Of a DNA stretch of 64,000 nucleotides, positions 9,886 through 45,757 are shown in pieces. The stretch lies in the NCBI RefSeq assembly GCF_016903815.1, contig NZ_CP069973.1. One strand, given 5' to 3'. A model generated the notes under the pieces. The model saw nothing but the letters and a program-made list of their open reading frames with translations, did no database searches and had not been told where the DNA came from. This DNA is from Escherichia coli (GTDB taxonomy: Bacteria; Pseudomonadota; Gammaproteobacteria; Enterobacterales; Enterobacteriaceae). A program made the translations under genes and the position numbers. Every line of letters starts with the position of its first letter. The stretch's first letter is position 1.

Positions 9886-9916
9886 ATCGCTTCAATTGGC
9901 TCTAGTTAACTCTGGT

Positions 9917-23486: not shown

Positions 23487-23540
23487 CCGGGGGCAGTCCG
23501 GGAAAACCTTCACGATTAACCCTTAATTTCAGGAATAACT

Positions 23541-24614: not shown

Positions 24615-24617
24615 CCG

Positions 24618-25361: not shown

Positions 25362-25460
25362 CAACCGAATGCGCCCCGCGCCAGGGCGGCACGCCGGTCA
25401 GTGAGGGTGAATCACCTGACACTACACCGGCGTCCACCGCCCGACTTTTCAGAGGTAGTC

Positions 25461-26173: not shown

Positions 26174-26176
26174 CGC

Positions 26177-26955: not shown

Positions 26956-26969
26956 ACGGAGTAAACACC

Positions 26970-27808: not shown

Positions 27809-27953
27809 CCCGCAGAAGAACGGCGATTTAAGTGCCGATATCCGGCTGCTTGAGAACGCGCTGGCACGCTGTGCCAGCCAGGTAAAAATGATTAAACACT
27901 GTCAGGACGAAAACGATGCTCAAACCCGACAGCCTGCGCAGGGCGCTGACTGA
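27663..27953 (+). CDS. LysC-like (Rz1-like outer-membrane lipoprotein spanin), begins inside lysB in another frame
   Basis: Lipoprotein signal with lipobox (MKTKIFAAGTVLTCLMLCAGCTS), Pro-rich; 96 aa like P2 LysC. Confidence 0.5.
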   Translation: MKTKIFAAGTVLTCLMLCAGCTSARPAQTPVIVHNACPKVSLCPMPGSDPQKNGDLSADIRLLENALARCASQVKMIKHCQDENDAQTRQPAQGAD

Positions 27954-28383
27954 TGCCGTCACGGTGCTGAAAACCAGTCCCGAGATGCTGCGGATATTCG
28001 TGGATAACGGGAGTATTGCCTCCACGCTGGCGACGTCGCTGTCATTCGAAAAGCGTTACACGCTCAATGTCATTGTGACCGACTTTACCGGTGATTTTGA
28101 CCTGCTCATCGTGCCGGTGCTGGCGTGGCTGCGGGAAAATCAGCCCGACATCATGACCACCGACGAAGGCCAGAAAAAGGGCTTCACGTTTTATGCGGAC
28201 ATCAACAATGACAGCAGCTTTGATATCAGCATCAGCCTGATGCTGACCGAGCGCACGCTGGTCAGTGAGGTGGACGGCGCACTGCATGTGAAGAATATCC
28301 CGGAACCTCCGCCGCCGGAGCCGGTCACTCGCCCGATGGAGCTTTATATCAATGGCGAACTGGTGAGCAAGTGGGATGAATGA
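27916..28383 (+). CDS. tail completion protein (P2 gpR-like)
   Basis: 155 aa, size and position as P2 R. Confidence 0.7.
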   Translation: MLKPDSLRRALTDAVTVLKTSPEMLRIFVDNGSIASTLATSLSFEKRYTLNVIVTDFTGDFDLLIVPVLAWLRENQPDIMTTDEGQKKGFTFYADINNDSSFDISISLMLTERTLVSEVDGALHVKNIPEPPPPEPVTRPMELYINGELVSKWDE

Positions 28384-28828
28384 GTTTAAGCGTTTTGAAG
28401 ACCGGCTGACCGGGCTGATTGAATCACTGTCACCATCAGGGCGTCGGCGACTGAGCACCGAACTGGCGAAACATCTGCGGCAGAGTCAGCAGCGCCGGGT
28501 GATGGCACAGAAAGCCCCGGACGGCACACCCTACGCACCACGCCAGCAGCAGAGCGCCAGAAAAAAGACCGGTCGTGTTAAGCGAAAAATGTTTGCGAAA
28601 CTTATCACCAGTCGTTTTTTGCATATCCGCGCCAGCCCGGAACAGGCATCAATGGAGTTTTACGGCGGAAAGTCACCGAAAATCGCCAGTGTGCATCAGT
28701 TCGGTCTGTCGGAAGAAACCCGGAAAGACGGTAAGAAAATTGATTATCCGGCGCGTCCTCTGCTCGGCTTTACCGGTGAGGATGTGCAGATGATTGAAGA
28801 GATTATCCTGGCTCACCTTGAGCGTTAG
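28376..28828 (+). CDS. tail completion protein (P2 gpS-like)
   Basis: 150 aa, size and position as P2 S. Confidence 0.7.
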   Translation: MNEFKRFEDRLTGLIESLSPSGRRRLSTELAKHLRQSQQRRVMAQKAPDGTPYAPRQQQSARKKTGRVKRKMFAKLITSRFLHIRASPEQASMEFYGGKSPKIASVHQFGLSEETRKDGKKIDYPARPLLGFTGEDVQMIEEIILAHLER

Positions 28829-28857
28829 TTTTATCCAGGCAGAGGCTGATGCGCAAT

Positions 28858-28894
28858 TAAACATTGAGCGGCCATGCTGGTCGCTCAATGTTTA
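28858..28894. repeat. perfect 13-bp inverted repeat (TAAACATTGAGCG / CGCTCAATGTTTA) with 11-nt loop
   Basis: Read directly from the sequence; sits between convergent S and the cargo gene, so it could be a bidirectional terminator. Confidence 0.6.
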
Positions 28895-28899
28895 GAGGT

Positions 28900-29685
28900 T
28901 TATGAGTGATTTTTATTTGATGCTTTGTATTCTAAAACCTTCTTATTGGCGTAAAAGAATTTTGTATATGACAGGAATATAACCAGACCTGAAGTGAAAT
29001 AGACGAGGGATAGTATTAATAATGCTTTTTTGTGACTGTTATTGTCTTTAATCTCCTGGCTTAACCATTCGGAGTCCTCCTCGTTTAACTGTAAGAGCTT
29101 ATTGCAGGCGATCTCAGGAAGTGTGTCTTTTATAAATACGTTTTGCAGTCTCTTGCAATCGGCAAGGCTATAAGTTTTATTAAATTCAACTGCTTTATTT
29201 TTGAAGGATAAAAGAACTTTGTCACTATAAACATAGTACATCATGTTTTTATATGGTATGCCTATGGCATCCCTTACTATAACGGATTGTTCGTTGTGTA
29301 TGTAACATGCGAGGAGAATGTAAAAAATACTGGCCAGAATTACAATTATTGTTTTAATTACGTGTGGTGGTTTTGTTATGTCACCCCAGATGCGAGTAAG
29401 GAAAAAATACGATGTTTTTAGTTTTCCATCAATCAGTCCCTGCTGTATCATTCTCACATTTTCAATGCCTGATACATTGATTCCGTTAATTATTTTAAAT
29501 AGTTGAATGTCGCGCCACTCGCGGTCAAGTCTTTTTAATTTTTTGTCTGAATATCCAAAATTGAGATAATGTGCAATAAGCCTCATAAGGTTACTTTTAC
29601 CAAAGCTAAAAAATGCTAATACTGCAAAGCTACAAAGGAAAAAAACGATTAGCCCCCACACATTAGTCACATTATAGCTGACCAT
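28900..29685 (-). CDS. cargo membrane protein (three predicted TM helices), function unknown
   Basis: 261 aa, AT-rich, opposite orientation to flanking late genes, at the P2 orf30 variable position between S and V. Confidence 0.5.
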   Translation of the reverse strand: MVSYNVTNVWGLIVFFLCSFAVLAFFSFGKSNLMRLIAHYLNFGYSDKKLKRLDREWRDIQLFKIINGINVSGIENVRMIQQGLIDGKLKTSYFFLTRIWGDITKPPHVIKTIIVILASIFYILLACYIHNEQSVIVRDAIGIPYKNMMYYVYSDKVLLSFKNKAVEFNKTYSLADCKRLQNVFIKDTLPEIACNKLLQLNEEDSEWLSQEIKDNNSHKKALLILSLVYFTSGLVIFLSYTKFFYANKKVLEYKASNKNHS

Positions 29686-29768
29686 TACGCTCTCCTTGAA
29701 TGTTGTCTGGTAGTTCTACAAATGAATCCAGATAGCATAACTTTTATATATTGTGCAATCTCACATGC

Positions 29769-30404
29769 ATGAACACTCTCGCAAATATTCAGGAACTCGC
29801 GCGCGCACTGCGCAACATGATTCGCACCGGCATTATCGTCGAAACCGACCTTAACGCCGGTCGCTGCCGTGTGCAGACCGGCGGCATGTGCACCGACTGG
29901 CTTCAGTGGCTGACCCATCGTGCCGGACGTTCACGCACATGGTGGGCACCTTCCGTGGGGGAACAGGTGCTGATTCTGGCCGTGGGCGGTGAACTCGACA
30001 CGGCGTTCGTTCTGCCGGGGATTTATTCCGGCGATAACCCTCCGCCGTCTGCGTCGGCGGATGCCCTGCACATACGTTTCCCTGACGGGGCGGTGATTGA
30101 ATATGAACCCGAAACCAGTGCACTCACGGTAAGCGGAATTAAAACGGCCAGCGTGACGGCTTCTGATTCTGTTACTGCCACGGTGCCGGTGGTCATGGTG
30201 AAAGCATCAACCCGCGTCACCCTGGACACCCCGGAGGTGGTCTGCACCAACAGGCTGATTACCGGCACGCTGGAAGTGCAGAAGGGCGGGACGATGCGCG
30301 GCAACATTGAACACACCGGCGGTGAACTCTCATCAAACGGTAAGGTACTGCATACCCATAAACACCCCGGCGACAGCGGCGGCACAACCGGGAGTCCTTT
30401 ATGA
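29769..30404 (+). CDS. baseplate assembly protein V (spike)
   Basis: 211 aa from internal Met; gene order V-W-J-I as in P2. Confidence 0.75.
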   Translation: MNTLANIQELARALRNMIRTGIIVETDLNAGRCRVQTGGMCTDWLQWLTHRAGRSRTWWAPSVGEQVLILAVGGELDTAFVLPGIYSGDNPPPSASADALHIRFPDGAVIEYEPETSALTVSGIKTASVTASDSVTATVPVVMVKASTRVTLDTPEVVCTNRLITGTLEVQKGGTMRGNIEHTGGELSSNGKVLHTHKHPGDSGGTTGSPL

Positions 30405-30748
30405 CAGCGCGTTATCTCGGAATGAATCGCAGTGATGGCCTGACTGTCACTGACCTTGAGCATATCAGCCAGAGTATCGGCGATATCCTGCGCACACCGG
30501 TCGGCTCACGGGTGATGCGTCGTGATTACGGCTCGTTGCTGGCATCAATGATTGACCAGCCGCAGACCCCGGCGCTTGAGTTGCAGATTAAGGTCGCCTG
30601 TTACATGGCGGTGCTGAAATGGGAACCCCGCGTCACCCTGTCATCCGTCACCACTGAGCGCAGTTTTGACGGGCGAATGACGGTCACGTTAACCGGCCAG
30701 CACAACGACACCGGCCAGCCACTTTCATTAACCATCCCTGTGAGTTGA
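30401..30748 (+). CDS. baseplate protein W (gp25-like)
   Basis: 115 aa, size as P2 W, overlaps V stop. Confidence 0.75.
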   Translation: MTARYLGMNRSDGLTVTDLEHISQSIGDILRTPVGSRVMRRDYGSLLASMIDQPQTPALELQIKVACYMAVLKWEPRVTLSSVTTERSFDGRMTVTLTGQHNDTGQPLSLTIPVS

Positions 30749-30752
30749 AACC

Positions 30753-31661
30753 ATGCCGATTATCGACCTGAACCAGCTACCCGCACCAGATGTGGTCGAG
30801 GAGCTGGACTTTGAAAGCATTCTCGCTGAACGCAAGGCGACACTGATTTCCCTTTACCCGGAAGATCAGCAGGAGGCGGTCGCCCGTACCCTGACACTGG
30901 AATCTGAGCCTCTCGTCAAACTGCTGGAAGAAAATGCTTATCGTGAGCTTATCTGGCGTCAGCGTGTGAATGAGGCCGCACGGGCGGTGATGCTGGCCTG
31001 TGCCGCCGGTAATGACCTTGATGTGATTGGTGCCAATTACAACACCACGCGCCTGACTATCACCCCGGCAGATGATTCGACCATTCCACCGACACCGGCA
31101 GTGATGGAATCTGACACCGATTATCGTCTGCGTATTCAGCAGGCTTTTGAGGGCTTAAGCGTCGCCGGGTCAGTGGGAGCCTATCAGTATCATGGTCGCA
31201 GTGCTGACGGGCGTGTCGCGGATATTTCTGTCACCAGTCCGTCTCCTGCCTGTGTCACCATCTCTGTGCTGTCACGTGAAAATAACGGCGTCGCATCCGA
31301 AGACCTGCTGGCTGTGGTGCGTAACGCCCTTAATGGCGAGGACGTCAGGCCGGTGGCCGACCGCGTGACCGTGCAGTCTGCCGCCATCGTTGAATACCAG
31401 ATAAACGCCACGCTTTACCTTTACCCTGGTCCCGAAAGCGAACCCATCCGCGCTGCCGCTGTGAAAAAGCTGGAAGCGTATATCACGGCACAGCACCGGC
31501 TGGGGCGCGACATCCGTCTGTCTGCCATTTATGCCGCTTTGCATGTGGAAGGTGTGCAGCGTGTCGAACTGGCTGCACCACTGGCCGACATCGTGCTCAA
31601 CAGTACGCAGGCGTCTTTCTGTACCGAATACCGCGTCGTGACCGGAGGCTCGGATGAGTGA
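30753..31661 (+). CDS. baseplate protein J
   Basis: 302 aa, size as P2 J. Confidence 0.8.
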   Translation: MPIIDLNQLPAPDVVEELDFESILAERKATLISLYPEDQQEAVARTLTLESEPLVKLLEENAYRELIWRQRVNEAARAVMLACAAGNDLDVIGANYNTTRLTITPADDSTIPPTPAVMESDTDYRLRIQQAFEGLSVAGSVGAYQYHGRSADGRVADISVTSPSPACVTISVLSRENNGVASEDLLAVVRNALNGEDVRPVADRVTVQSAAIVEYQINATLYLYPGPESEPIRAAAVKKLEAYITAQHRLGRDIRLSAIYAALHVEGVQRVELAAPLADIVLNSTQASFCTEYRVVTGGSDE

Positions 31662-32184
31662 TTCGCGACTGCTGCCGACCGGCTCATCACCGCTTGAGGT
31701 CGCCGCCGCAAAAGCCTGTGCGGAAATTGAAAAAACGCCGGTCAGTATTCGTGAGCTGTGGAACCCGGACACCTGTCCGGCAAATCTGCTGCCGTGGCTG
31801 GCGTGGGCGTTTTCGGTCGACAGGTGGGATGAAAAGTGGCCGGAAGCGACAAAACGCGCCGTTATCCGCGATGCGTATTTCATCCACTGTCATAAAGGCA
31901 CAATAGGTGCAATCCGGCGTGTGGTGGAGCCGCTCGGCTATCTCATCAACGTGACGGAGTGGTGGGAAAACAGTGACCCGCCCGGCACCTTCCGGCTTGA
32001 TATTGGTGTACTGGAAAGCGGCATCACAGAGGCAATGTATCAGGAAATGGAACGGCTGATTGCTGATGCCAAACCTGCAAGCCGCCACCTTATTGGTCTG
32101 AACATTACCCGGGACATTCCCGGCTACCTGTTTGCCGGTGGTGTGGCTTATGACGGCGATGTAATTACGGTTTACCCCGGATAA
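31654..32184 (+). CDS. baseplate/tail protein I
   Basis: 176 aa, size as P2 I, overlaps J. Confidence 0.75.
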   Translation: MSDSRLLPTGSSPLEVAAAKACAEIEKTPVSIRELWNPDTCPANLLPWLAWAFSVDRWDEKWPEATKRAVIRDAYFIHCHKGTIGAIRRVVEPLGYLINVTEWWENSDPPGTFRLDIGVLESGITEAMYQEMERLIADAKPASRHLIGLNITRDIPGYLFAGGVAYDGDVITVYPG

Positions 32185-32194
32185 GTGAGGAATA

Positions 32195-34219
32195 ATGAGC
32201 ACAAAATTCAAAACCGTTATCACCACTGCCGGTGCAGCAAAGCTGGCAGCGGCAACCGCGCCGGGAGGGCGGAAGGTCAACATTACCACGATGGCCGTCG
32301 GGGATGGCGGTGGTAAATTGCCTGTCCCGGATGCCGGACAGACCGGGCTTATCCACGAAGTCTGGCGACATGCGCTGAACAAAATCAGCCAGGACAAACG
32401 AAACAGTAATTATATTATCGCAGAGCTGGTTATTCCGCCGGAGGTGGGCGGTTTCTGGATGCGTGAGCTTGGCCTGTACGATGATGCGGGAACGTTGATT
32501 GCCGTGGCGAACATGGCCGAAAGTTATAAGCCTGCCCTTGCCGAAGGCTCAGGGCGTTCGCAGACCTGCCGCATGGTCATCATCGTCAGCAGTGTGGCCT
32601 CAGTGGAGCTGACCATTGACACCACAACGGTGATGGCAACGCAGGATTATGTTGATGACAAAATTGCAGAACATGAACAGTCACGACGTCACCCTGACGC
32701 CTCGCTGACCGCAAAAGGTTTTACTCAGTTAAGCAGTGCGACCAACAGCACGTCTGAAACACTGGCTGCAACGCCAAAAGCCGTTAAGACGGTAATGGAT
32801 GAAACGAACAAGAAAGCGCCATTAAACAGCCCTGCACTGACCGGAACGCCAACGACGCCAACTGCGACAAAGGGGACTAATAATACTCAGATCGCAAACA
32901 CGGCTTTCGTTATGACCGCGATTGCCGCCCTTGTAGACTCGTCACCTGACGCACTGAATACGCTGAACGAGCTGGCAGCGGCGCTGGGTAACGACCCGAA
33001 TTTTGCTACCACCATGACTAATGCGCTTGCGGGTAAGCAACCGAAAGATGCTACCCTGACGGCGCTGGCGGGGCTTGCTACTGCGGCAGACAGGTTTCCG
33101 TATTTTACGGGGAATGATGTTGCCAGTCTGGCAACTCTGACAAAAGTCGGGCGGGATATTCTTGCGAAATCGACCGTTGCCGCCGTTATCGAATATCTCG
33201 GTTTACAGGAAACGGTAAACCGAGCCGGGAACGCCGTGCAAAAAAATGGCGATACCTTGTCCGGTGGACTTACTTTTGAAAACGACTCAATCCTTGCCTG
33301 GATTCGAAATACTGACTGGGCGAAGATTGGATTTAAAAATGATGCCGATGGTGACACTGATTCATACATGTGGTTTGAAGCAGGCGACAACGGCAATGAA
33401 TATTTCAAATGGAGAAGCCGCCAGAGCACCACAACAAAAGACCTGATGAATCTTAAATGGGATGCTTTGTATGTTCTTGTTAAAGCCCTTTTCAGCAGTG
33501 AAGTAAAAATATCGACAGTCAATGCACTGAGGATATTTAATTCATCTTTTGGTGCTATTTTTCGTCGTTCTGAAGAATGCCTGCATATCATCCCTACACG
33601 AGAGAATGAGGGAGAAAATGGTGATATAGGGCCACTACGCCCCTTTACGCTTAATCTCAGAACTGGTCGGATAAGCATGGGGCATGGTCTTGATGTTACA
33701 GGGGATATATTTGCAAAACGTTTTGCAATTAACAGTAGTACCGGCATGTGGATTCATATGCGTGACCAGAATGTTATTTTGGGACGCAATGCGGTATCCA
33801 CCGATGGTGCGCAGGCATTACTTCGTCAGGACCACGCTGATCGCAAATTTATGATTGGTGGACTGGGGAATAAGCAATTTGGCATCTACATGATTAATAA
33901 CTCAAGGACAGCCAATGGCACCGATGGTCAGGCGTACATGGACAACAATGGCAACTGGCTTTGTGGCTCGCAAGTTATTCCTGGCAACTATGGCAATTTT
34001 GATTCCAGATATGTGAAAGATGTTCGACTTGGTTCACAGCAATATTATGGAGTGAACAACTGGCAAACATGGAATTTCCAGTGCCCGTCAGGTCATGTAT
34101 TGTCTGGTATTAATGTTCAGGATACAGGGTCCAACTCTGCCGATAATATAGCGGGCGTTTATTACAGACCCGTTCAAAAGTATATAAATGGCACCTGGTA
34201 TAATGTAGCGAGCGTTTAA
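32195..34219 (+). CDS. tail fiber protein H
   Basis: 674 aa; conserved N-terminal baseplate-attachment region and Thr/Ala-rich repeats, divergent C-terminal receptor-binding part. Confidence 0.8.
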
Positions 34220-34220
34220 T

Positions 34221-34748
34221 ATGATGCACTTAAAGAAAATAAAAGCGGGTAACGCTAAAACACTGGAACAGTATGAGTTAACAAAGAAACACGGAGTTAT
34301 CTGGCTTTACTCTGAGGACGGAAAAAACTGGTATGAGGAAGTGAAGAACTTTCAGCCAGATACAATAAAGATTGTTTACGATGAAAATAATATTATTGTC
34401 GCTATCACCAGAGATGCTTCAACGCTTAATCCTGAAGGTTTTAGCGTTGTCGAGGTTCCTGATATTACCGCCAACCGACGTGCTGATGACTCAGGGAAAT
34501 GGATGTTTAAGGATGGTGCCGTGATTAAGCGGATTTATACGGCAGACGAACAGCAACAACAGGCCGAATCACAAAAGGCCGCGTTACTTTCCGAAGCTGA
34601 ATCAGTTATCCAGCCGCTGGAACGCGCCGTCAGGCTGAATATGGCGACGGATGAGGAGCGCGCACGACTGGAGTCATGGGAACGCTACAGCGTTCTGGTC
34701 AGCCGTGTGGATCCTGCAAATCCTGAATGGCCGGAAATACCGCAATAA
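34221..34748 (+). CDS. tail fiber assembly chaperone G
   Basis: 175 aa immediately after H. Confidence 0.7.
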
Positions 34749-35038
34749 GTTGTATGATATCTGGAGTGAGCTAACGTATCTATGGCACAGAGTAAAACTT
34801 AATCTGACAGTCTGCTCTGTACCAAAAGCGGAACTTGCTTACATCGTGCTATGTTAGTTTGCTGGGAGCAGGTCATTATCTACGTGATTGCTATTTTATA
34901 ACTTGGATAAAATGGGGGATGAACATAATATCGAGACAGTGATTGCAGAGTTAGTCATTATAGGCGGGCATCAGTTCATGCCGGATCTCTAATGCAATTA
35001 TCAGGAAAATATGGGACGTTTTATCAATCAGAGGAAAT

Positions 35039-36265
35039 ATGTTACAGTTCAGCTTTGTATCAAATGACGTTGTTATGACTTACGACGGTGACAGCGGAGA
35101 ACAAATAATTTGGGTTTGGGAGAGTTTAAATAAATTTCAAACAGTATGCATTTCACGCATTTTTAACTTTCAACTCCAGGACTTGAGAAACCCACCGTCA
35201 ACCGTTCAGGATTTTAATGATTATGAATATTCCTTTAATTTTGGCACGCTTAATAATGAATACATAACAGTTCCGGGACGGATTCTAAGCATTAATCGAG
35301 ATGTCCTTATACATAAGTCCATCAAGCTTGAAAGGAAAGTATTTGCGTCAGAACGCAACGTCTCCATTTTTGGTCGGCTTTCAAAACTACTCGATCACAC
35401 TAATCCCATCATCATCGGAGGAGATAAGTCGGAAGCTATACCAAAAAGCGTATTCCAGGAGTTGCAAAGTAAATTCCCCAACACAGGGGAACTGGATCGC
35501 TATGCTAATGCAAGGGTTCACGCTATTCTCGCAGGTTATCTTGATGGTATGAAAGATGCTCGCGAACGGTATGAACATTACCTAAACAGAAAAACAGTGA
35601 TCAGAAAAACCGACAAACTGGATTTAGAAGTTTTAAATAAGCTCGAAATTGAGAAATATACACTCATAAGAGACATTATCCAGGATGCGTTGAATAACAA
35701 AACTAACTTGTCTGAAGATGACTGGCAGAGCCTGATGATACCCTTCATCACATTACTTTTTCCAAAATATATCAAGGTCCTCGAGAAGGTTAAAATTTTC
35801 GACTATTACTCTAATCCTTCGGCTAAAACAAATCGGTTTATAGACATTGCACTGGTGGATGCAAACGGCAACCTTGATATCATCGAAGTCAAAAAGCCGT
35901 TTGATGATAAGATCCTTCGCAAGACGCCCTATCGCGACAACTATATTCCTACATCAGAACTTAGCGGCGGTATTATGCAGGCTGAAAAGTATATTTTTCA
36001 TTTATCTAAATGGGGTGTTAAGGGTGAAAAAGAGCTTACGAATGCCTACAAGAATTCTCTGCCAGCGGGAATGTGTATTCGTATATCTAACCCAAAAGCC
36101 ATCATCATTGTCGGGCGCGATCAGATAGCGAACGGTAACATGACCGACGGTCAGTTGCTTGATTTTGAGATAATCAAACGTAAGTACGCCAACATGATAG
36201 ACATATTGACGTACGACGACCTGTTGCGTCGACTTAATAATACGATTGAAGCATTGAAAGGTTGA
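35039..36265 (+). CDS. cargo protein with C-terminal PD-(D/E)xK nuclease-like motif (possibly Shedu-like), function unknown
   Basis: 408 aa, AT-rich; motif RFIDIALVDANGNLDIIEVKKP (D...D...E-x-K) near residue 275-295; located at the P2 Z/fun variable position between G and FI. Confidence 0.5.
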   Translation: MLQFSFVSNDVVMTYDGDSGEQIIWVWESLNKFQTVCISRIFNFQLQDLRNPPSTVQDFNDYEYSFNFGTLNNEYITVPGRILSINRDVLIHKSIKLERKVFASERNVSIFGRLSKLLDHTNPIIIGGDKSEAIPKSVFQELQSKFPNTGELDRYANARVHAILAGYLDGMKDARERYEHYLNRKTVIRKTDKLDLEVLNKLEIEKYTLIRDIIQDALNNKTNLSEDDWQSLMIPFITLLFPKYIKVLEKVKIFDYYSNPSAKTNRFIDIALVDANGNLDIIEVKKPFDDKILRKTPYRDNYIPTSELSGGIMQAEKYIFHLSKWGVKGEKELTNAYKNSLPAGMCIRISNPKAIIIVGRDQIANGNMTDGQLLDFEIIKRKYANMIDILTYDDLLRRLNNTIEALKG

Positions 36266-36426
36266 ATGTCCATGAGGTTCACACCCACAACGGGGAGCAG
36301 GTCACTTCCTATTGTTTGATTGACATACCATAACGTCTGCTTTTGGCTCAAAGCAGACTGTCTGATTTGATAGCTTTTGGGCTATGTAAATTGTCAGTTG
36401 AAAAATGAGTGAGTACAAATCAGGAC

Positions 36427-36454
36427 GGGCGGGCGAGTTGCCCGCCTTTTCTTT
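36427..36454 (+). terminator. rho-independent terminator after the cargo gene
   Basis: GGGCGGGC-GAGTT-GCCCGCC followed by TTTTCTTT. Confidence 0.6.
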
Positions 36455-36551
36455 AATCTGTTGTTTCATCCACTGACCAGCCAGGTCAAATAGCGTCTCA
36501 TGCTCTGCACAACAGAAAATAGTTGCACCCATTAACCACGGAGTTAAACGG

Positions 36552-37742
36552 ATGAGCGACTATCATCATGGCGTGCAGGTGCTGGAGATTAACGACGGCA
36601 CCCGCGTCATTTCCACCGTATCCACGGCCATTGTCGGCATGGTCTGCACGGCCAGCGATGCGGATGCGGAAATCTTCCCCCTCAATAAACCGGTACTGAT
36701 TACCAATGTGCAGAGCGCAATTGCAAAGGCTGGTAAAAAAGGCACGCTGGCGGCATCGTTGCAGGCCATCGCCGACCAGTCAAAACCGGTCACCGTTGTC
36801 GTACGTGTGGAAGACGGCACCGGCGACGACGAGGAAACGAAACTCGCGCAGACCGTTTCCAATATCATCGGCACCACCGACGAAAACGGTCAGTACACCG
36901 GACTGAAAGCCCTGCTGGCGGCGGAGTCGGTAACCGGTGTTAAACCGCGTATTCTCGGCGTGCCGGGACTGGATACCAAAGAGGTGGCTGTTGCACTGGC
37001 ATCAGTCTGTCAGAAGCTGCGCGCTTTCGGGTATATCAGCGCATGGGGCTGTAAAACCATTTCCGAGGTGAAAGCCTACCGTCAGAATTTCAGCCAGCGT
37101 GAGCTGATGGTCATCTGGCCGGATTTCCTCGCATGGGATACGGTCACCAGTACCACCGCCACCGCGTATGCCACCGCCCGTGCGCTGGGGCTGCGCGCTA
37201 AAATCGACCAGGAGCAGGGCTGGCATAAAACGCTGTCCAATGTCGGGGTGAACGGTGTTACCGGCATCAGCGCCTCTGTATTCTGGGATTTGCAGGAGTC
37301 CGGTACTGATGCTGACCTGCTTAACGAGTCAGGCGTCACAACGCTGATTCGCCGTGACGGTTTCCGCTTCTGGGGTAACCGTACCTGCTCTGATGACCCG
37401 CTGTTCCTCTTTGAAAACTACACCCGCACCGCGCAGGTGATGGCCGACACGATGGCTGAGGCGCACATGTGGGCGGTGGACAAGCCCATCACCGCAACGC
37501 TGATTCGCGACATCGTTGACGGCATCAATGCCAAATTCCGTGAGCTGAAAACAAACGGCTATATCGTGGATGCGACCTGCTGGTTCAGCGAAGAATCCAA
37601 CGATGCGGAAACCCTCAAGGCCGGAAAACTGTATATCGACTACGACTATACACCGGTGCCTCCTCTTGAAAACCTGACCCTGCGCCAGCGTATTACCGAT
37701 AAATACCTGGCAAATCTGGTCACCTCGGTTAACAGCAATTAA
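36552..37742 (+). CDS. contractile tail sheath protein FI
   Basis: 396 aa, size and position as P2 FI. Confidence 0.85.
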   Translation: MSDYHHGVQVLEINDGTRVISTVSTAIVGMVCTASDADAEIFPLNKPVLITNVQSAIAKAGKKGTLAASLQAIADQSKPVTVVVRVEDGTGDDEETKLAQTVSNIIGTTDENGQYTGLKALLAAESVTGVKPRILGVPGLDTKEVAVALASVCQKLRAFGYISAWGCKTISEVKAYRQNFSQRELMVIWPDFLAWDTVTSTTATAYATARALGLRAKIDQEQGWHKTLSNVGVNGVTGISASVFWDLQESGTDADLLNESGVTTLIRRDGFRFWGNRTCSDDPLFLFENYTRTAQVMADTMAEAHMWAVDKPITATLIRDIVDGINAKFRELKTNGYIVDATCWFSEESNDAETLKAGKLYIDYDYTPVPPLENLTLRQRITDKYLANLVTSVNSN

Positions 37743-37754
37743 GGAGCCTGACCG

Positions 37755-38273
37755 ATGGCAATGCCGCGCAAACTCAAGTTAATGAACGTCTTTCTGAACG
37801 GCTACAGCTATCAGGGCGTCGCGAAGTCCGTCACGCTACCAAAACTGACCCGTAAGCTCGAAAACTATCGCGGTGCGGGGATGAACGGCAGCGCACCGGT
37901 AGACCTCGGCCTTGATGACGATGCGCTGTCAATGGAGTGGTCGCTCGGTGGCTTCCCGGATTCGGTTATCTGGGAGCTTTACGCCGCAACCGGTGTGGAT
38001 TCCGTACCGATTCGTTTTGCAGGCTCTTACCAGCGCGACGATACCGGCGAAACGGTGGCCGTCGAGGTGGTCATGCGTGGACGTCAGAAAGAAATCGACA
38101 CCGGCGAGGGCAAACAGGGAGAAGATACCGAGTCGAAAATCTCCGTGGTCTGCACCTATTTCCGGCTGACGATGGACGGTAAGGAGCTGGTCGAAATCGA
38201 CACCATCAACATGATTGAGAAGGTGAACGGCGTCGACCGGCTGGAGCAACACCGCCGCAATATCGGCCTGTGA
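37755..38273 (+). CDS. tail tube protein FII
   Basis: 172 aa, size as P2 FII. Confidence 0.85.
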   Translation: MAMPRKLKLMNVFLNGYSYQGVAKSVTLPKLTRKLENYRGAGMNGSAPVDLGLDDDALSMEWSLGGFPDSVIWELYAATGVDSVPIRFAGSYQRDDTGETVAVEVVMRGRQKEIDTGEGKQGEDTESKISVVCTYFRLTMDGKELVEIDTINMIEKVNGVDRLEQHRRNIGL

Positions 38274-38329
38274 TTTTCATCCGGTCAGCCTGGCTGACCG
38301 GTTAACCCCGATTCAGAAGTGAGAAAACC

Positions 38330-38605
38330 ATGAACAAAGAAAATGTGATTACCCTGGACAATCCGGTCAAGCGTGGTGAGCAGGTTATCGAACAGGTCAC
38401 GCTGATGAAACCCAATGCCGGGACGCTGCGCGGTGTCAGTCTGGCAGCGGTCGCGAACTCTGAAGTCGATGCACTGATTAAGGTGCTGCCGCGCATGACG
38501 GCACCGATGCTGACCGAGCAGGAAGTCGCCGCGCTGGAACTGCCTGACCTTGTGGCGCTGGCCGGTAAGGTGGTCGGTTTTTTGTCGCCGAACTCGGTGC
38601 AGTGA
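38330..38605 (+). CDS. tail assembly chaperone E
   Basis: 91 aa; slippery site GGTTTTTTG near its 3' end. Confidence 0.7.
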   Translation: MNKENVITLDNPVKRGEQVIEQVTLMKPNAGTLRGVSLAAVANSEVDALIKVLPRMTAPMLTEQEVAALELPDLVALAGKVVGFLSPNSVQ

Positions 38606-38757
38606 CGTTTCCAAAAAATCTGTCGGTCGATGACCTGATGGCGGATGTGGCAGTGATATTTCACTGGCCGCCATCAGAACTGTATCCCATGAGCCTGACC
38701 GAACTCATCACATGGCGCGAAAAGGCGCTCCGGCGAAGCGGAAACACGAATGAGTAA
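38330..38757 (+). CDS. tail assembly chaperone E+E' (-1 programmed frameshift product, predicted)
   Basis: Slippery heptamer-like T-run at 38575-38583; the -1 frame stays open to TAA at 38755-38757, overlapping the T start. Confidence 0.45.
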
Positions 38758-41197
38758 CAATGTAAAATTACAGGTATTGCTCAGGGCTGTTGACCAGGCA
38801 TCCCGCCCGTTTAAATCCATCCGCACAGCGAGCAAATCGCTGTCGGGGGATATCCGGGAAACACAAAAATCACTGCGCGAGCTGAACGGTCAGGCATCCC
38901 GTATTGAGGGATTCCGCAAGACCAGTGCACAGCTCGCCGTGACTGGTCATGCACTTGAAAAGGCTCGGCAGGAGGCCGAAGCCCTTGCCACACAGTTTAA
39001 AAATACCGAACGTCCGACCCGTGCTCAGGCGAAAGTGCTGGAATCCGCAAAGCGTGCGGCGGAGGACTTACAGGCGAAATATAACCGCCTGACAGATTCC
39101 ATTAAACGCCAGCAGCGGGAACTGGCCGCTGTGGGAATTAATACCCGCAATCTTGCACATGATGAGCAGGGACTGAAAAACCGTATCAGTGAAACCACCG
39201 CACAGCTTAACCGTCAGCGTGACGCGCTGGCGCGTGTCAGTGCACAACAGGCAAAACTTAACGCAGTAAAACAGCGTTATCAGGCCGGAAAGGAACTGGC
39301 CGGAAATATGGCCTCGGTGGGCGCTGCCGGTGTGGGGATTGCTGCTGCGGGAACGATGGCCGGAGTTAAGTTGCTGATGCCCGGTTATGAGTTTGCGCAG
39401 AAAAACTCAGAATTGCAGGCTGTGCTCGGTGTGGCAAAAGACTCCGCCGAAATGGCTGCACTACGCAAGCAGGCGCGCCAGCTCGGCAACAATACCGCAG
39501 CCTCGGCAGATGATGCAGCCGGTGCGCAGATTATTATTGCGAAAGCCGGTGGGGATGTTGATGCCATTCAGGCGGCAACGCCGGTCACGCTGAATATGGC
39601 GCTGGCGAACCGTCGCACGATGGAAGAAAACGCCGCCCTGCTGATGGGGATGAAATCCGCCTTTCAGCTTTCAAACGATAAGGTCGCTCATATCGGGGAT
39701 GTTCTCTCCATGACGATGAACAAAACCGCCGCCGATTTTGATGGCATGAGCGATGCGCTGACCTATGCCGCACCTGTGGCAAAAAATGCTGGTGTCAGCA
39801 TTGAAGAAACCGCCGCAATGGTCGGGGCGCTGCATGATGCAAAAATTACCGGTTCAATGGCGGGGACGGGAAGCCGTGCCGTGTTAAGCCGCCTGCAGGC
39901 ACCGACGGGAAAAGCATGGGATGCACTGAAAGAGCTTGGCGTGAAAACCTCAGACAGTAAAGGGAATACTCGACCAGTATTTACCATTCTGAAAGAAATG
40001 CAGGCCAGTTTTGAGAAAAACCGGCTCGGTACTGCCCAGCAGGCTGAATACATGAAAACTATTTTCGGGGAGGAGGCCAGCTCAGCCGCCGCCGTGCTGA
40101 TGACTGCCGCCTCAACTGGAAAGCTGGACAAACTGACCGCTGCGTTTAAAGCCTCAGACGGGAAGACCGCCGAGCTGGTAAATATCATGCAGGACAACCT
40201 CGGCGGTGACTTTAAGGAGTTTCAGTCCGCTTATGAGGCGGTGGGGACTGACCTGTTTGACCAGCAGGAAGGCGCACTGCGTAAGCTCACGCAGACGGCC
40301 ACAAAGTATGTGTTAAAACTCGACGGCTGGATACAGAAAAACAAATCACTGGCGTTAACCATCGGCATCATTGTCGGTGGTGCACTGGCACTGATTGGTG
40401 TCATCGGTGCCATTGGCCTCGTAGCCTGGCCGGTTATCACCGGCATCAATGCCATCATCGCGGCAGCAGGCGCAATGGGAGCAATCTTCACGACGGTTGG
40501 CAGTGCTGTTATGACGGCCATCGGGGCGATTAGCTGGCCGGTTGTGGCCGTGGTGGCCGCCATTGTCGCCGGGGCGTTACTTATCCGTAAATACTGGGAG
40601 CCTGTCAGCGCATTCTTTGGCGGTGTGGTTGAAGGGCTGAAAGCGGCATTTGCGCCGGTGGGGGAACTGTTCACGCCACTTAAGCCGGTGTTTGACTGGC
40701 TGGGCGAAAAGTTACAGGCCGCGTGGCAGTGGTTTAAAAACCTGATTGCCCCGGTCAAAGCCACCCGGGACACCCTGAACCGTTGCCGTGATACGGGCGT
40801 CATGTTCGGGCAGGCACTGGCTGACGCGTTGATGCTGCCGCTTAATGCGTTCAACAAACTGCGCAGCGGTATTGACTGGGTACTGGAAAAACTCGGTGTT
40901 ATCAACAAAGAGTCAGGCACGCTTGACCAGACCGCCGCCAGAACTCATGCCGCCACGTATGGCACCGGTGGTTATATTCCGGCGACCAGCTCTTATGCAG
41001 GCTATCAGGCTTATCAGCCGGTTACGGCACCGGCTGGCCGCTCTTATGTGGACCAGAGTAAAAACGAATATCACATCAGTCTGACGGGCGGTACTGCGCC
41101 GGGGACACAGCTTGACCGCCAGTTACAGGATGCGCTCGAAAAATACGAGCGGGATAAACGTGCGCGCGCCCGTGCCAGCATGATGCATGACGGTTAA
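38750..41197 (+). CDS. tail tape-measure protein T
   Basis: 815 aa, coiled-coil N-terminus, Gly/Ala-rich hydrophobic segment; size as P2 T. Confidence 0.85.
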   Translation: MSNNVKLQVLLRAVDQASRPFKSIRTASKSLSGDIRETQKSLRELNGQASRIEGFRKTSAQLAVTGHALEKARQEAEALATQFKNTERPTRAQAKVLESAKRAAEDLQAKYNRLTDSIKRQQRELAAVGINTRNLAHDEQGLKNRISETTAQLNRQRDALARVSAQQAKLNAVKQRYQAGKELAGNMASVGAAGVGIAAAGTMAGVKLLMPGYEFAQKNSELQAVLGVAKDSAEMAALRKQARQLGNNTAASADDAAGAQIIIAKAGGDVDAIQAATPVTLNMALANRRTMEENAALLMGMKSAFQLSNDKVAHIGDVLSMTMNKTAADFDGMSDALTYAAPVAKNAGVSIEETAAMVGALHDAKITGSMAGTGSRAVLSRLQAPTGKAWDALKELGVKTSDSKGNTRPVFTILKEMQASFEKNRLGTAQQAEYMKTIFGEEASSAAAVLMTAASTGKLDKLTAAFKASDGKTAELVNIMQDNLGGDFKEFQSAYEAVGTDLFDQQEGALRKLTQTATKYVLKLDGWIQKNKSLALTIGIIVGGALALIGVIGAIGLVAWPVITGINAIIAAAGAMGAIFTTVGSAVMTAIGAISWPVVAVVAAIVAGALLIRKYWEPVSAFFGGVVEGLKAAFAPVGELFTPLKPVFDWLGEKLQAAWQWFKNLIAPVKATRDTLNRCRDTGVMFGQALADALMLPLNAFNKLRSGIDWVLEKLGVINKESGTLDQTAARTHAATYGTGGYIPATSSYAGYQAYQPVTAPAGRSYVDQSKNEYHISLTGGTAPGTQLDRQLQDALEKYERDKRARARASMMHDG

Positions 41198-41211
41198 GGA
41201 GGTGACGAAAA

Positions 41212-41691
41212 ATGATGCTCGCGTTAGGTATGTTTGTTTTTATGCGCCAGACGCTGCCACACCAGACCATGCAGCGTGAATCAGATTATCGCTGGCCGTC
41301 AAATTCCCGTATCGGTAAACGGGATGCCTACCAGTTTCTCGGTGTTGGCGAGGAAAACATCACGCTTGCCGGCGTGCTTTATCCCGAACTGACCGGCGGC
41401 AAGCTGACGATGACCACGCTCAGGCTGATGGCAGAGGAAGGCCGGGCGTGGCCGTTGCTGGATGGCACTGGCATGATTTACGGTATGTATGTCATCAGCA
41501 GGGTGAGTGAAACAGGGAGTATTTTCTTTGCAGACGGCACACCCCGGAAAATTGATTTTACGCTGTCACTCACCCGCGTTGATGAATCACTGGCCGCGCT
41601 TTATGGTGATATCGGTAAACAGGCGGAATCGCTCATCGGTAAGGCTGGCAGTCTGGCGACCAGATTCACAGGTATGACGGGGGCGGGATAA
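41212..41691 (+). CDS. tail protein U
   Basis: 159 aa, size as P2 U. Confidence 0.75.
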   Translation: MMLALGMFVFMRQTLPHQTMQRESDYRWPSNSRIGKRDAYQFLGVGEENITLAGVLYPELTGGKLTMTTLRLMAEEGRAWPLLDGTGMIYGMYVISRVSETGSIFFADGTPRKIDFTLSLTRVDESLAALYGDIGKQAESLIGKAGSLATRFTGMTGAG

Positions 41692-42854
41692 TGCTGGATG
41701 CACTGACATTTGATGCAGGCAGTACGCTGACGCCGGATTACATGCTGATGCTCGACAGCAGGGATATTACCGGCAATATCAGCGGCCGTCTGATGAGCAT
41801 GACCCTGACGGATAACCGGGGCTTTGAGGCTGACCAGCTTGATATTGAACTGAACGATGCCGACGGGCAGGTCGGGCTGCCGGTTCGTGGCGCTGTCCTG
41901 ACGGTGTATATCGGCTGGAAAGGTTTTGCCCTGGTATGCAAAGGGAAATTCACCGTTGATGAGGTAGAACACCGGGGCGCGCCGGATGTGGTCACCATCC
42001 GGGCCCGGAGTGCAGATTTTCGTGGCACGCTCAATTCCCGCCGTGAAGGCTCCTGGCATGACACCACGCTCGGTGCGATTGTTGAGGCGATAGCCTCCCG
42101 TAACAGGCTGGAAGCCAGTGTCGCTCCGTCACTGGCCGGAATTAAAATCCCGCACATCGACCAGTCGCAGGAGTCTGATGCAAAATTCCTGACCCGCCTT
42201 GCTGAACGCAACGGCGGTGAGGTGTCGGTAAAAATGGGAAAACTGTTGTTTCTCAAAGCGGGGCAGGGGGTGACGTCCAGCGGTAAAAAAATCCCGCAGG
42301 TCACCATAACCCGCAGCGACGGCGACCGCCATCATTTTGCGATTGCTGACCGTGGAGCCTATACCGGCGTAACGGCAAAGTGGTTACACACCAAAGACCC
42401 GAAGCCACAAAAGCAGAAGGTAAAACTGAAACGAAAAAAGAAAGAGAAACACCTGCGCGCACTGGAGCACCCCAAAGCGAAACCAGTCACGCAGAAGAAA
42501 GCGCCAAAAGTACCGGAAGCGCGCGAAGGTGAATACATGGCCGGTGAGGCTGACAACGTTTTTGCCCTGACCACGGTATATGCCACGAAAGCACAGGCCA
42601 TGCGCGCCGCTCAGGCGAAGTGGGATAAACTGCAACGGGGTGTAGCGGAGTTCTCCATCAGTCTGGCTACTGGTCGGGCAGATATTTACACGGAAACGCC
42701 GGTCAAAGTGTCAGGCTTTAAGCGCGTCATAGACGAGCAGGACTGGACAATCACTAAGGTGACACATTTTCTGAATAATAGCGGCTTCACGACGTCCCTG
42801 GAGCTTGAGGTCAGGCTTTCTGATGTGGAGTACGAAACCGAAGATGATGAGTGA
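41691..42854 (+). CDS. tail protein D (late-gene product)
   Basis: 387 aa, size as P2 D. Confidence 0.8.
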   Translation: MLDALTFDAGSTLTPDYMLMLDSRDITGNISGRLMSMTLTDNRGFEADQLDIELNDADGQVGLPVRGAVLTVYIGWKGFALVCKGKFTVDEVEHRGAPDVVTIRARSADFRGTLNSRREGSWHDTTLGAIVEAIASRNRLEASVAPSLAGIKIPHIDQSQESDAKFLTRLAERNGGEVSVKMGKLLFLKAGQGVTSSGKKIPQVTITRSDGDRHHFAIADRGAYTGVTAKWLHTKDPKPQKQKVKLKRKKKEKHLRALEHPKAKPVTQKKAPKVPEAREGEYMAGEADNVFALTTVYATKAQAMRAAQAKWDKLQRGVAEFSISLATGRADIYTETPVKVSGFKRVIDEQDWTITKVTHFLNNSGFTTSLELEVRLSDVEYETEDDE

Positions 42855-42936
42855 TGTGTTTTATTTTATCTGTTTGTTTTATAAGGATAAATTAACTAAA
42901 ATGGCAACATCAACAAAACCGGAAGAGGTGCTCGCG

Positions 42937-43155
42937 ATGTTTCATTGTCCTTTATGCCAGCATGCCGCACATGCGCGTACAAGCCGCTATATCACTGACA
43001 CGACAAAAGAGCGTTATCACCAGTGTCAGAACGTGAATTGCAGCGCCACGTTCATCACTTATGAGTCGGTACAGCGATACATCGTGAAGCCGGGAGAAGT
43101 CCACGCCGTAAGACCGCACCCGTTGCCGTCAGGGCAGCAAATTATGTGGATGTAA
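42937..43155 (+). CDS. ogr: Ogr zinc-finger late-gene transcription activator
   Basis: 72 aa from internal Met; C4 zinc finger CPLCQ...CQNVNC; last prophage gene before attR. Confidence 0.8.
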   Translation: MFHCPLCQHAAHARTSRYITDTTKERYHQCQNVNCSATFITYESVQRYIVKPGEVHAVRPHPLPSGQQIMWM

Positions 43156-43166
43156 TTACAATCAGG

Positions 43167-43194
43167 AAGCCCCTCAGTCGAGGGGCTTTTTTTG
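43167..43194 (+). terminator. rho-independent terminator after ogr
   Basis: AAGCCCCTC-AGTC-GAGGGGCTT followed by TTTTTTTG. Confidence 0.7.
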
Positions 43195-43268
43195 TCGATG
43201 TGGTCAATATGTGGACGTGACCAGAAATAAATCCTTTTATTTCATGTGATTAGATATCAAAAAATGTC

Positions 43269-43281
43269 ACCAATAACTGAC
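43269..43281. repeat. attR core (13-bp direct repeat ACCAATAACTGAC)
   Basis: Identical to 9814-9826; followed by the displaced native pflA ATG (minus strand, 43281-43283) and promoter region. Confidence 0.6.
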
Positions 43282-43406
43282 ATTGCGGTGTTTCTCCAGA
43301 TGTGGCCCATCTGAGGCCGTGTTGGTGCGCAGCTCGAAGGCTACGTCGAGTCTGTTTTGGCAGTCACCTTAAAGTATAGATAGCTGACAAAAAAGGCTCT
43401 CGTGCT

Positions 43407-43434
43407 AAAAAAGGCCCCACTTTCGTGGAGCCTT
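43407..43434 (-). terminator. pflB rho-independent terminator
   Basis: Minus-strand hairpin GGCTCCAC-GAAA-GTGGGGCC followed by TTTTTT. Confidence 0.7.
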
Positions 43435-43474
43435 TATTGTACGCTTTTTACTGTACGATTTCAGTCAAATCTAA

Positions 43475-45757
43475 TTACATAGATTGAGTGAAGGTACGAG
43501 TAATAACGTCCTGCTGCTGTTCTTTAGTCAGCGAGTTGAAACGTACTGCGTAGCCAGATACACGGATGGTCAGCTGCGGATATTTTTCCGGGTTTTCCAT
43601 CGCGTCGAGCAGCATTTCACGGTTCATCACGTTAACGTTCAGGTGCTGACCACCTTCGATGGATGCTTCGTGGTGGAAGTAACCATCCATCAGACCAGCC
43701 AGGTTGGTCTTACGAACTTCGTCGTCTTTACCCAGTGCGTTCGGAACGATAGAGAAGGTGTAGGAGATACCATCTTTAGCGTAAGCAAACGGCAGTTTAG
43801 CAACGGAAGTCAGAGAGGCTACTGCACCTTTCTGGTCACGACCGTGCATCGGGTTAGCACCCGGTCCGAATGGCGCGCCAGCACGACGACCGTCTGGGGT
43901 GTTACCAGTTTTCTTACCATACACAACGTTAGAAGTGATGGTCAGAACAGACTGAGTCGGGATAGCGTCACGGTAGGTGTGCAGTTTCTGAATTTTCTTC
44001 ATGAAACGTTCTACCAGGTCAACAGCCAGGTCATCTACACGCGGATCGTTGTTACCAAACTGCGGGTATTCGCCTTCGATTTCGAAGTCGATAGCCAGAC
44101 CGTCTTCGTCACGAATCGGTTTAACTTTCGCATATTTGATTGCAGACAGGGAGTCAGCAGCAACGGACAGACCAGCGATACCACACGCCATGGTGCGGAT
44201 AACGTCACGGTCGTGCAGCGCCATCAGAGAGGCTTCGTAGCTGTACTTGTCGTGCATGTAGTGGATGATGTTCAGTGCAGTGATGTACTGTTTAGCCAGC
44301 CAGTCCATGAAGTGATCCATGCGCTCCATCACTTCATCGTAGTTCAGGAGATCGCCTTTGATCGGCTCAGACTTCGGACCAACCTGCATTTTCAGTTTTT
44401 CGTCAACGCCACCGTTGATTGCGTACAGCATGGTTTTCGCCAGGTTTGCACGCGCACCGAAGAACTGCATTTGTTTACCAACGATCATCGGGCTTACGCA
44501 GCAAGCGATAGCGTAGTCATCGTTGTTGAAGTCCGGACGCATCAGGTCATCGTTCTCATACTGCAGAGAAGAGGTGTCGATGGACACTTTAGCAGCGAAT
44601 TTCTTGAAGTTCAGCGGCAGTTTTTCGGACCACAGAATGGTCATGTTCGGTTCCGGAGACGGACCCATGGTGTACAGGGTGTTCAGGAAACGGAAGCTGT
44701 TTTTGGTAACCAGGGTACGACCGTCGAGGCCCATACCACCGATAGATTCGGTTGCCCAGATCGGGTCGCCAGAGAACAGTTCATCGTATTCCGGAGTACG
44801 CAGGAAGCGAACCATACGCAGTTTCATGACCAGGTGGTCAACCATTTCCTGCGCTTCTTGTTCGGTGATCTTGCCAGCTTTCAGGTCACGTTCGATGTAC
44901 ACATCCAGGAAGGTGGAGGTACGACCGAAGGACATTGCAGCACCGTTCTGAGACTTAACAGCAGCCAGGTAGCCGAAGTAAGTCCACTGGATAGCTTCCT
45001 GAGCGTTGGTAGCCGGACCAGAGATGTCGTAGCCGTATTTCGCAGCCATTTCTTTCATCTGACCCAGAGCGCGGTGCTGTTCAGCGATTTCTTCGCGCAG
45101 ACGGATAGTCTGTTCCAGGTTTACGCCGTTTTCCAGATCAGCCTGCAGAGAGGTGAACTGTGCAAGTTTATCTTTCATCAGGTAGTCGATACCGTACAGC
45201 GCAACGCGACGGTAGTCACCGATGATACGACCACGGCCATAAGCATCTGGCAGACCGGTCAGAACACCGGATTTACGGCAACGCAGGATGTCCGGAGTGT
45301 AAACGTCGAACACGCCCTGGTTGTGAGTTTTACGGTATTCAGTGAAGATTTTTTTGATCATCGGGTCCAGTTCGCGGTTGTACGCTTTGCAGGAACCTTC
45401 GATCATTTTGATACCACCGAACGGGATAAGAGCACGTTTCAGCGGAGCTTCAGTCTGCAGACCAACAACTTTTTCCAACGCTTTGTTGATGTAGCCAGCG
45501 TCGTGAGAGGTGATGGTGGAAGCAACAGCGGTGTCAAAGTCAACTGGCGCGTGAGTGCGGTTTTCCAGTTTAACGCCTTCCATTACTTTGTCCCACAGGG
45601 TGGTGGTCGCTTCAGTAGCGCCAGCCAGGAAGGACTCGTCACCCTCGTACGGAGTGTAGTTTTTCTGAATGAAGTCACGGACGTTTACTTCATTCTGCCA
45701 GTCACCTTTGGTAAAACCTTCCCAGGCTGTGGCTAACTTTTCATTAAGCTCGGACAT
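43475..45757 (-). CDS. pflB: pyruvate formate-lyase (glycyl-radical enzyme)
   Basis: 760 aa; C-terminal glycyl-radical motif RVSGYAVRF; high codon-bias gene. Confidence 0.95.

Follow-up and report, generated by a model that had tools for sequence, protein, structure and literature searches.

The AT-rich gene located between the tail fibre assembly gene (G) and the tail sheath gene (FI) of a P2-like prophage of E. coli is, with very little doubt in our judgement, the sduA gene of a one-gene Shedu anti-phage system (type I), which the prophage carries as a moron in its Z/fun slot and whose product works as the EcSduA protein does. The gene was analysed in a window of 64,000 nucleotides from contig NZ_CP069973.1 (assembly GCF_016903815.1), which is the whole stretch of DNA under study and to which all coordinates refer. 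Earlier publications already cover the protein and its structure, the way it acts, the defence it confers and its occurrence at Z/fun; neither the protein nor its position is new. The gene and the domains of its product are the following.

35039..36265, + strand: sduA open reading frame, ATG start, 408 aa.
35039..35473, + strand: sduA codons 1-145, N-terminal clamp domain that senses dsDNA ends, with W25, R106 and K116, assigned from the identity to 8PS4/8PS6 and the domain limits of Loeff et al.
35474..35620, + strand: sduA codons 146-194, alpha-helical linker with R154 and Y181 (linker limits 146-188 in EcSduA).
35621..36265, + strand: sduA codons 195-408 and stop codon, DUF4263/SduA_C PD-(D/E)xK nuclease domain with the active site E226, Q230, D269, E283, K285 and Q314.

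The closest protein of solved structure is the SduA of E. coli KTE10, or EcSduA, deposited as PDB 8PS4, 8PS5 and 8PS6 by Loeff, Walter, Rosalen and Jinek (bioRxiv 10.1101/2023.08.10.552762). The window protein is identical to the full-length entries (8PS4/8PS5) at 407 of 408 residues, with S131 here and P131 there, and its residues 1-188 are those of the crystallised N-terminal domain (8PS6) save for the same position; the length, the start codon and the order of domains are alike. The PADLOC SduA model PDLC04067 matches with an E value of 1.4e-219 (residues 1-407 on positions 1-406 of the 407 in the model), a second full-length SduA model of PADLOC-DB, PDLC00388, matches with 4.4e-171, and 14 more SduA models from this collection match the C-terminal half. 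Pfam SduA_C (PF14082, formerly DUF4263) is found at residues 224-396, covering positions 2-159 of 159 of the model (E = 7.5e-33). None of the NCBIfam HMMs matches the window protein, yet RefSeq names the product of identical DNA (100%) 'Shedu immune nuclease family protein' in many genomes, and in PHROGs the protein matches phrog_18241, a family with no assigned function, over its full length. The architecture is that of type I Shedu, with DUF4263 starting at about residue 195-224 of 408 and a long N-terminal region ahead of it. The system also consists of one gene, as sduA is the sole open reading frame of its kind between the inverted-repeat arms of the slot, and RefSeq annotates a single gene between G and FI. 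A Shine-Dalgarno sequence, GAGGA, lies 3-4 nt 5' of the ATG, and the GC content of the gene is 0.396, compared with 0.55 for positions 20000-33000 and 0.54 for positions 36552-45000.

An earlier note, made from the letters of this DNA, had described an AT-rich gene of 408 aa between G and FI and proposed that it encodes a Shedu-like, single-gene PD-(D/E)xK defence protein. The boundaries of the gene proved exact, its GC content is low and the flanking genes belong to phrog_136 and phrog_23; the proposed function is borne out by the full-length PADLOC SduA match, PF14082, the near identity to 8PS4 and the RefSeq name.

The work of Loeff et al. on EcSduA, which reportedly appeared later in Cell (2025), describes the protein to which the window sequence can be compared residue by residue. 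EcSduA is a 195-kDa homotetramer, organised as a dimer of dimers, in which the DUF4263 domains form the body and the N-terminal domains (1-145) build two clamps via a helical linker (146-188), while the nuclease occupies residues 195-408 (10.1101/2023.08.10.552762). The nuclease has a PD-(D/E)xK fold in which Mg2+ is held by E226, Q230, D269, E283, K285 and residue 314, and alanine mutants of E226, D269, E283, K285 and residue 314 neither cleave dsDNA nor confer defence. Continuous B-form DNA does not fit into the clamp, which is too narrow for it; only the end of a duplex can enter, where W25 caps it, and the W25A mutation abolishes defence. Three basic patches (R106/K116, R154/Y181 and Y256/K263) lead the duplex over the active site, the product carries a nick in the 5' strand, about 13-14 nt away from the end, and in the DNA-bound structure about 12 A separate the scissile phosphate from the catalytic centre. 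The enzyme does not target ssDNA, ssRNA or circular plasmids, and the N-terminal domain both restrains and targets the nuclease (10.1101/2023.08.10.552762).

All 13 of the EcSduA residues validated by mutation are kept in the window protein (W25, R106, K116, R154, Y181, E226, Q230, Y256, K263, D269, E283, K285 and Q314), and the PD-(D/E)xK active site is intact, with its six residues (E226, Q230, D269, E283, K285 and Q314) at the EcSduA positions. Since all of them are conserved, the N-terminus of the window protein should be an end sensor plus a linker, and the view of the earlier note that the first 250 residues are unassigned is out of date, as residues 1-145 and the linker have these roles in EcSduA. 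The D...D...E-x-K motif that it had quoted, IDIALVDANGNLDIIEVKK, is present at residues 268-286 (nt 35840-35896), but only D269, E283 and K285 within it are validated catalytic residues; E226, Q230 and Q314 fall outside it. The note had left the matter of fold and active site to structure prediction and to mutants of the motif, and both have already been answered for EcSduA, one residue apart from the window protein, with a PD-(D/E)xK fold and active-site alanine mutants devoid of defence (10.1101/2023.08.10.552762). The single variable site, S131/P131, is located in the N-terminal domain and is absent from the set of tested residues, and the S131 allele probably behaves like the P131 allele.

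The gene occupies a well-delimited position in the prophage, whose features around it are listed here.

32195-34219: tail fibre gene, 5' of the G homologue.
34221..34748, + strand: tail fibre assembly gene (P2 G homologue), left flank; phrog_136, E = 5.2e-80; RefSeq 'tail fiber assembly protein' in strain 7/2.
34801..34832, no strand assigned: left inverted-repeat arm, P2 backbone; 32 nt, 84% complementary to the right arm; 'left inverted repeat' in AJ512677.
34825..36330, + strand: Shedu cassette, the variable segment that stands in place of the P2 Z/fun segment; GC about 0.40; limits from the P2 homology break points.
34864..34875, + strand: 12-nt direct repeat GGGAGCAGGTCA, upstream copy.
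34903..34931, + strand: predicted sigma-70 promoter of sduA, TTGGAT, 17 nt spacer, TAATAT; minus_35 and minus_10 of AJ512677 mapped via the alignment offset.
36293..36304, + strand: 12-nt direct repeat GGGAGCAGGTCA, downstream copy, 28 nt past the sduA stop codon.
36336..36367, no strand assigned: right inverted-repeat arm; 'Right inverted repeat' in AJ512677; local hairpin at 36335-36358.
36427..36455, + strand (hairpin 36427-36447): strong intrinsic terminator, GGGCGGGC-GAGTT-GCCCGCC followed by TTTTCTTT, within the P2-homologous backbone and 3' of the right arm.
36552..37742, + strand: tail sheath gene (P2 FI homologue), right flank; phrog_23, E = 1.1e-158; RefSeq 'phage tail sheath protein'.

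P2 (OU784549) is homologous to the window up to position 34824 and again from 36331 onwards, which leaves about 1.5 kb here compared with a Z/fun segment of 1.14 kb in P2. Six P2-like loci, each with cargo of its own (Z/fun, a SMEK-domain protein, a Sll1717-family P-loop ATPase and three distinct hypothetical proteins), give the same picture: they cease to be homologous to the window at 34820-34836 and become so again at 36331-36346. The break points fall together with the 32-nt inverted repeat. The break points with P2 and the flanking genes confirm the Z/fun position that had been proposed from the letters. The same inverted-repeat arms are found in P2, in vB_EcoM-12474III, in P22H4 and in E. 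coli O121, and by BLAST in the remaining compared loci. Because the arms recur in P2-like elements with unrelated cargo, the inverted repeat belongs to the slot and not to the cargo.

The terminator calls for a similar correction. The earlier note had regarded it as the gene's own, but the hairpin at 36427-36447 lies in the backbone conserved with P2 and is the slot's terminator; it would end transcription of both the cargo gene and the upstream late operon before FI. The predicted promoter of sduA is weak, matching the consensus at 3 of 6 and 4 of 6 positions, and a consensus promoter scan of the region 5' of sduA returned no + strand site at the scan threshold. The 12-nt direct repeat occurs twice in the 64 kb (0.19 copies expected), with both copies in the cassette, bracketing sduA just inside the inverted-repeat frame. 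The sole match of an Rfam scan of the window was the chromosomal sRNA STnc130; the cassette and its vicinity gave none, and the scan revealed no retron ncRNA.

The Z/fun cargo of P2 itself shares with the Shedu cassette the G-FI position, the inverted-repeat arms and the terminator, and it is likewise a non-essential anti-phage moron, but its protein, encoded by a 299-aa open reading frame, is unrelated. Z/fun blocks phage T5 and is not known to block the T-even phages. Earlier work has described the slot: the iLund4u preprint treats it as a classical hotspot, the presence of Shedu systems at Z/fun in P2 prophages is pointed out by Loeff et al. (10.1101/2023.08.10.552762), and Vassallo et al. 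2022 record a second P2 hotspot at the fun position (PMC9519451). Shedu is not mentioned in the main text of Rousset et al. 2022 or of the 2026 P2/P4 preprint.

The insert had been sequenced before Shedu was known. The DNA of AJ512677, the proviral Z-region of P2-EC31 with its ORF1, is 99.0% identical to positions 34719-36581 of the window, both inverted repeats included, and the record annotates the two repeats, a promoter and ORF1. The first description of the P2-EC31 Z-region is reportedly a paper in the reference list of Rousset et al. As deposited, the open reading frame has 362 aa because one T is missing at window position 35994; when this T is restored, the frame has 408 aa, of which 405 are identical to the window protein, the differences being T121N, S131P and C346R in P2-EC31. 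Since the ECOR31 assembly has a gene of 1227 nt, the missing T is probably a sequencing error. The label 'EC31' we take to mean ECOR strain 31.

The same strain yielded PD-T4-8, which Vassallo et al. describe as a single 1227-nt DUF4263 gene of ECOR31 obtained from a functional selection against T4, validated on a low-copy plasmid under its native promoter and protective against T4; the ECOR31 fragment, with 257 nt upstream of the gene, conferred defence from that native promoter (PMC9519451). Given the name of the strain and the length of the gene, PD-T4-8 is very probably P2-EC31 ORF1.

A more distant comparison is provided by the Shedu protein of Bacillus cereus B4264 (Doron et al. 2018; Gu et al., 10.1101/2023.08.10.552793). 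It resembles the window protein in its C-terminal DUF4263 PD-(D/E)xK nuclease, in its tetrameric core and in the restraint that the N-terminal domain places on a nuclease domain toxic by itself, but its N-terminal sensor has an unrelated sPC4/Whirly-like fold (type 1A), and its activation is proposed to proceed via the formation of octamers (10.1101/2023.08.10.552793).

Regarding its distribution, 52 of 5,426 complete genomes of E. coli carry sduA, in each case on the chromosome, and its context is invariant, as a 3.5-kb G-sduA-FI query is covered to 80% or more in every one of them. About 2,300 E. coli genomes have other cargo between these flanks. The exact window protein occurs on 762 public contigs, which argues for a maintained, functional allele, and S131 is the commonest allele in public data; the KTE10/PDB sequence, an allele that differs by S131P only, belongs to the same cluster at 90% identity. 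When 50,697 phage records were searched by tblastn, the gene was found in the P2-EC31 fragment only. A comparison of residues 1-190 with 5.8 billion proteins returned 17 matches, mostly fragments, together with Shedu proteins of Ralstonia, Azotobacter and Pigmentiphaga, and no fusion of the sensor domain to another kind of effector. An apparent stand-alone N-terminal-domain protein (P0004) was set aside, since it lies 90 nt from the end of its contig and its context is uninformative.

The P2-like prophage that carries sduA is located between pflA (9088-9885, - strand) and pflB (43475-45757, - strand), with its integrase at the following position.

9917-10912: integrase.

The window is 99.1-99.4% identical to E. 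coli strain 7/2 (NZ_CP023820) over 15355-28833 and 29811-56265, and in that strain the element is a complete P2-like prophage. The prophage in the window also carries a type VI retron (HTH_VI and RT_VI) and, in the old/tin slot, an FRG/PDC-S15 candidate. Its S-V slot contains an open reading frame of 261 aa without assignment, which is swapped relative to strain 7/2.

Because 407 of its 408 residues are identical, the window protein is considered to work like EcSduA, and its anti-phage phenotype should be that of the protein from KTE10. With W25 and the DNA-binding patches kept, it would form a homotetramer whose paired N-terminal domains make narrow, end-binding clamps that take up a free end of linear dsDNA, with W25 stacked on the end. 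Once the end is bound, the duplex would lie over the active site of the PD-(D/E)xK (DUF4263) domain, and this site would use Mg2+ to nick the 5' strand some 13-14 nt from the end. Circular DNA of the host and of plasmids, having no ends, would be spared, and phages that expose linear dsDNA ends or depend on them would be blocked with survival of the host. Such a block has been reported for T-even phages with their recombination-dependent replication, whose linear intermediates are implicated by the uvsW mutations found in T6 escapers (10.1101/2023.08.10.552762). In the lysogen, the protein would be expressed from the cassette's own weak predicted promoter.

Two other accounts concern how the protein protects and whom it benefits. 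If abortive infection were the main mode, the nuclease would become indiscriminate once phage ends or damaged host DNA appear, and the cell would die while the population is protected; we consider this quite improbable. It is in line with the citation of PD-T4-8 by Gu et al. as a proposed Abi system (10.1101/2023.08.10.552793), with the classification as probable Abi of 12 of the 21 systems of Vassallo et al., a figure that applies to the set as a whole (PMC9519451), and with the toxicity of the isolated nuclease domain of EcSduA (195-408 or 146-408). Against it, full-length EcSduA is non-toxic, cells that carry it grow like uninfected cells when T6 is added at an MOI of 5, a result that speaks for something other than abortive infection, and circular plasmids are left untouched in vivo (10.1101/2023.08.10.552762). 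Considering Gu et al. and Loeff et al. together, the survival of infected cells may hinge on the expression level or on the phage. It also seems rather unlikely that the main benefit of the gene for the prophage is competition between mobile elements, through the destruction of transforming fragments, linear plasmids and rival temperate phages or satellites. Loeff et al. suggested such a role from the Z/fun location, and in their transformation assay the establishment of linear fragments in vivo was about 10-fold lower with EcSduA; the further defence cargo of the same prophage also points in this direction. However, the strongest phenotype measured is the drop of more than 30,000-fold in the plating of T2 and T6 (10.1101/2023.08.10.552762), and the two roles are compatible with each other.

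The label of ORF1 in AJ512677, 'putative lysogenic conversion protein', together with the many human isolates among the carrier strains, could be taken to mean that the gene is a lysogenic-conversion or virulence factor without any link to phage defence. This is almost certainly wrong. The label is generic and older than the discovery of Shedu, and a near-identical protein, EcSduA, is a cytoplasmic DNA nuclease of solved structure with a defence phenotype; no signal peptide and no toxin family were found in the window protein with PADLOC, NCBIfam and Pfam. Given nuclease structure and defence data on a protein identical at 407 of 408 positions, we dropped that reading and retain sduA as an end-directed Shedu nuclease.

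As sduA is carried by a phage, P2 would have to tolerate the nuclease, presumably by circularising through its cos ends and replicating from circle to circle. Like lambda, P2 has cohesive ends on entry into the cell and becomes circular there, and monomeric circles are its substrate for both replication and packaging. Such a life cycle would expose few free duplex ends, which would let P2 carry an end-sensing nuclease. For lambda, which was included in the EcSduA phage panel, no protection was reported (10.1101/2023.08.10.552762). A further, joint proposal goes beyond this, namely that the 12-nt repeat is the footprint of a discrete cassette exchange at the Z/fun slot, either site-specific or microhomology-mediated, and that P2 can carry an end-sensing nuclease only through cos circularisation and replication and packaging from monomeric circles; taken as a whole, we regard it as doubtful.

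These results also provide a calibration point, in that a reading of the raw sequence was right about the PD-(D/E)xK motif, the Shedu-like layout and the hotspot position. For the biology of P2-like elements, the prophage is a compact case of stacked defence cargo, in which four separate slots hold Shedu, a type VI retron, an FRG/PDC-S15 candidate and an unassigned open reading frame. If the compatibility of P2 with the nuclease does depend on how P2 replicates, the replication mode of the carrier would limit which defence cargo a phage can host.

The Shedu nuclease gene sduA, which occupies the Z/fun slot of the P2-like prophage, is flanked by two exact copies of a 12-nt direct repeat, located immediately interior to the conserved inverted-repeat arms.

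34864-34875, +, direct repeat copy 1, GGGAGCAGGTCA
36293-36304, +, direct repeat copy 2, GGGAGCAGGTCA

These are the only two copies in the 64 kb, compared with 0.19 expected, and one of 100 shuffled sequences reaches this number; the repeat extends to 19 nt at 84% identity. It is also found in the other Shedu-bearing loci, and neither this sequence nor an analogous flanking repeat was found in the six P2-like loci that carry other cargo. For one related record, AJ512677, which contains the Z-region of P2-EC31, a single T is missing at position 1275/1276 (position 35994 of the window), shifting the frame and cutting the annotated ORF to 362 aa. The missing base is probably a sequencing error of this old record, since the ECOR31 assembly lists a gene of 1227 nt.

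Genes H (tail fibre) and G (tail-fibre assembly) are both close to the Z/fun slot. From 33300 to 34750 (+), the C-terminal third of H and gene G have a GC content of 0.39-0.46, with 0.53-0.60 in the rest of the late operon, a low value that fits the known modular swapping of receptor-binding regions beside this slot.

The prophage is inserted between pflA and pflB (regions 9088-10912 and 42900-45757), with its integrase directly adjoining pflA, and the E. coli flank upstream of it encodes a chromosomal sRNA, STnc130.

951-1085, -, sRNA STnc130 (Rfam RF02084, 140 bits)
9088-9885, -, pflA
9917-10912, -, prophage integrase
43475-45757, -, pflB

STnc130 is the single Rfam match at the gathering threshold in the whole window, and this search returned no retron ncRNA. 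A type VI retron (16418-17666, +) was identified from its protein-coding genes in the old/tin cargo slot of the prophage, which has the replication gene A on one side and the portal gene on the other. Its two genes overlap, and a 454-aa ORF adjoins them on the opposite strand.

16418-16750, +, HTH protein of the retron (PADLOC HTH_VI, E = 7e-30)
16689-17666, +, reverse transcriptase of the retron (RT_VI, E = 1e-105)
17775-19139, -, 454-aa ORF with an FRG domain and a PDC-S15 match

In the 454-aa ORF, no assignment was obtained for the N-terminal ~165 residues; the FRG domain (Pfam PF08867) spans residues 191-281, and the PADLOC candidate system PDC-S15 is matched strongly over residues 168-451 (E = 9e-98). 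Among the PHROGs it matches phrog_4962, whose function is unknown.

A further ORF separates gene S (tail completion) from gene V (baseplate) and runs opposite to them.

28900-29685, -, 261-aa ORF (phrog_2407)

Searches of Pfam, PADLOC and NCBIfam gave no matches for it, and its sole match, over the full length, is phrog_2407, a family of unknown function. The closely related prophage of E. coli strain 7/2 (NZ_CP023820) has a different hypothetical gene of 1044 nt at this position. Since the 977-bp segment 28834-29810 alone lacks homology to strain 7/2, the remaining prophage being 99% identical, the S-V slot is exchanged independently of Shedu.
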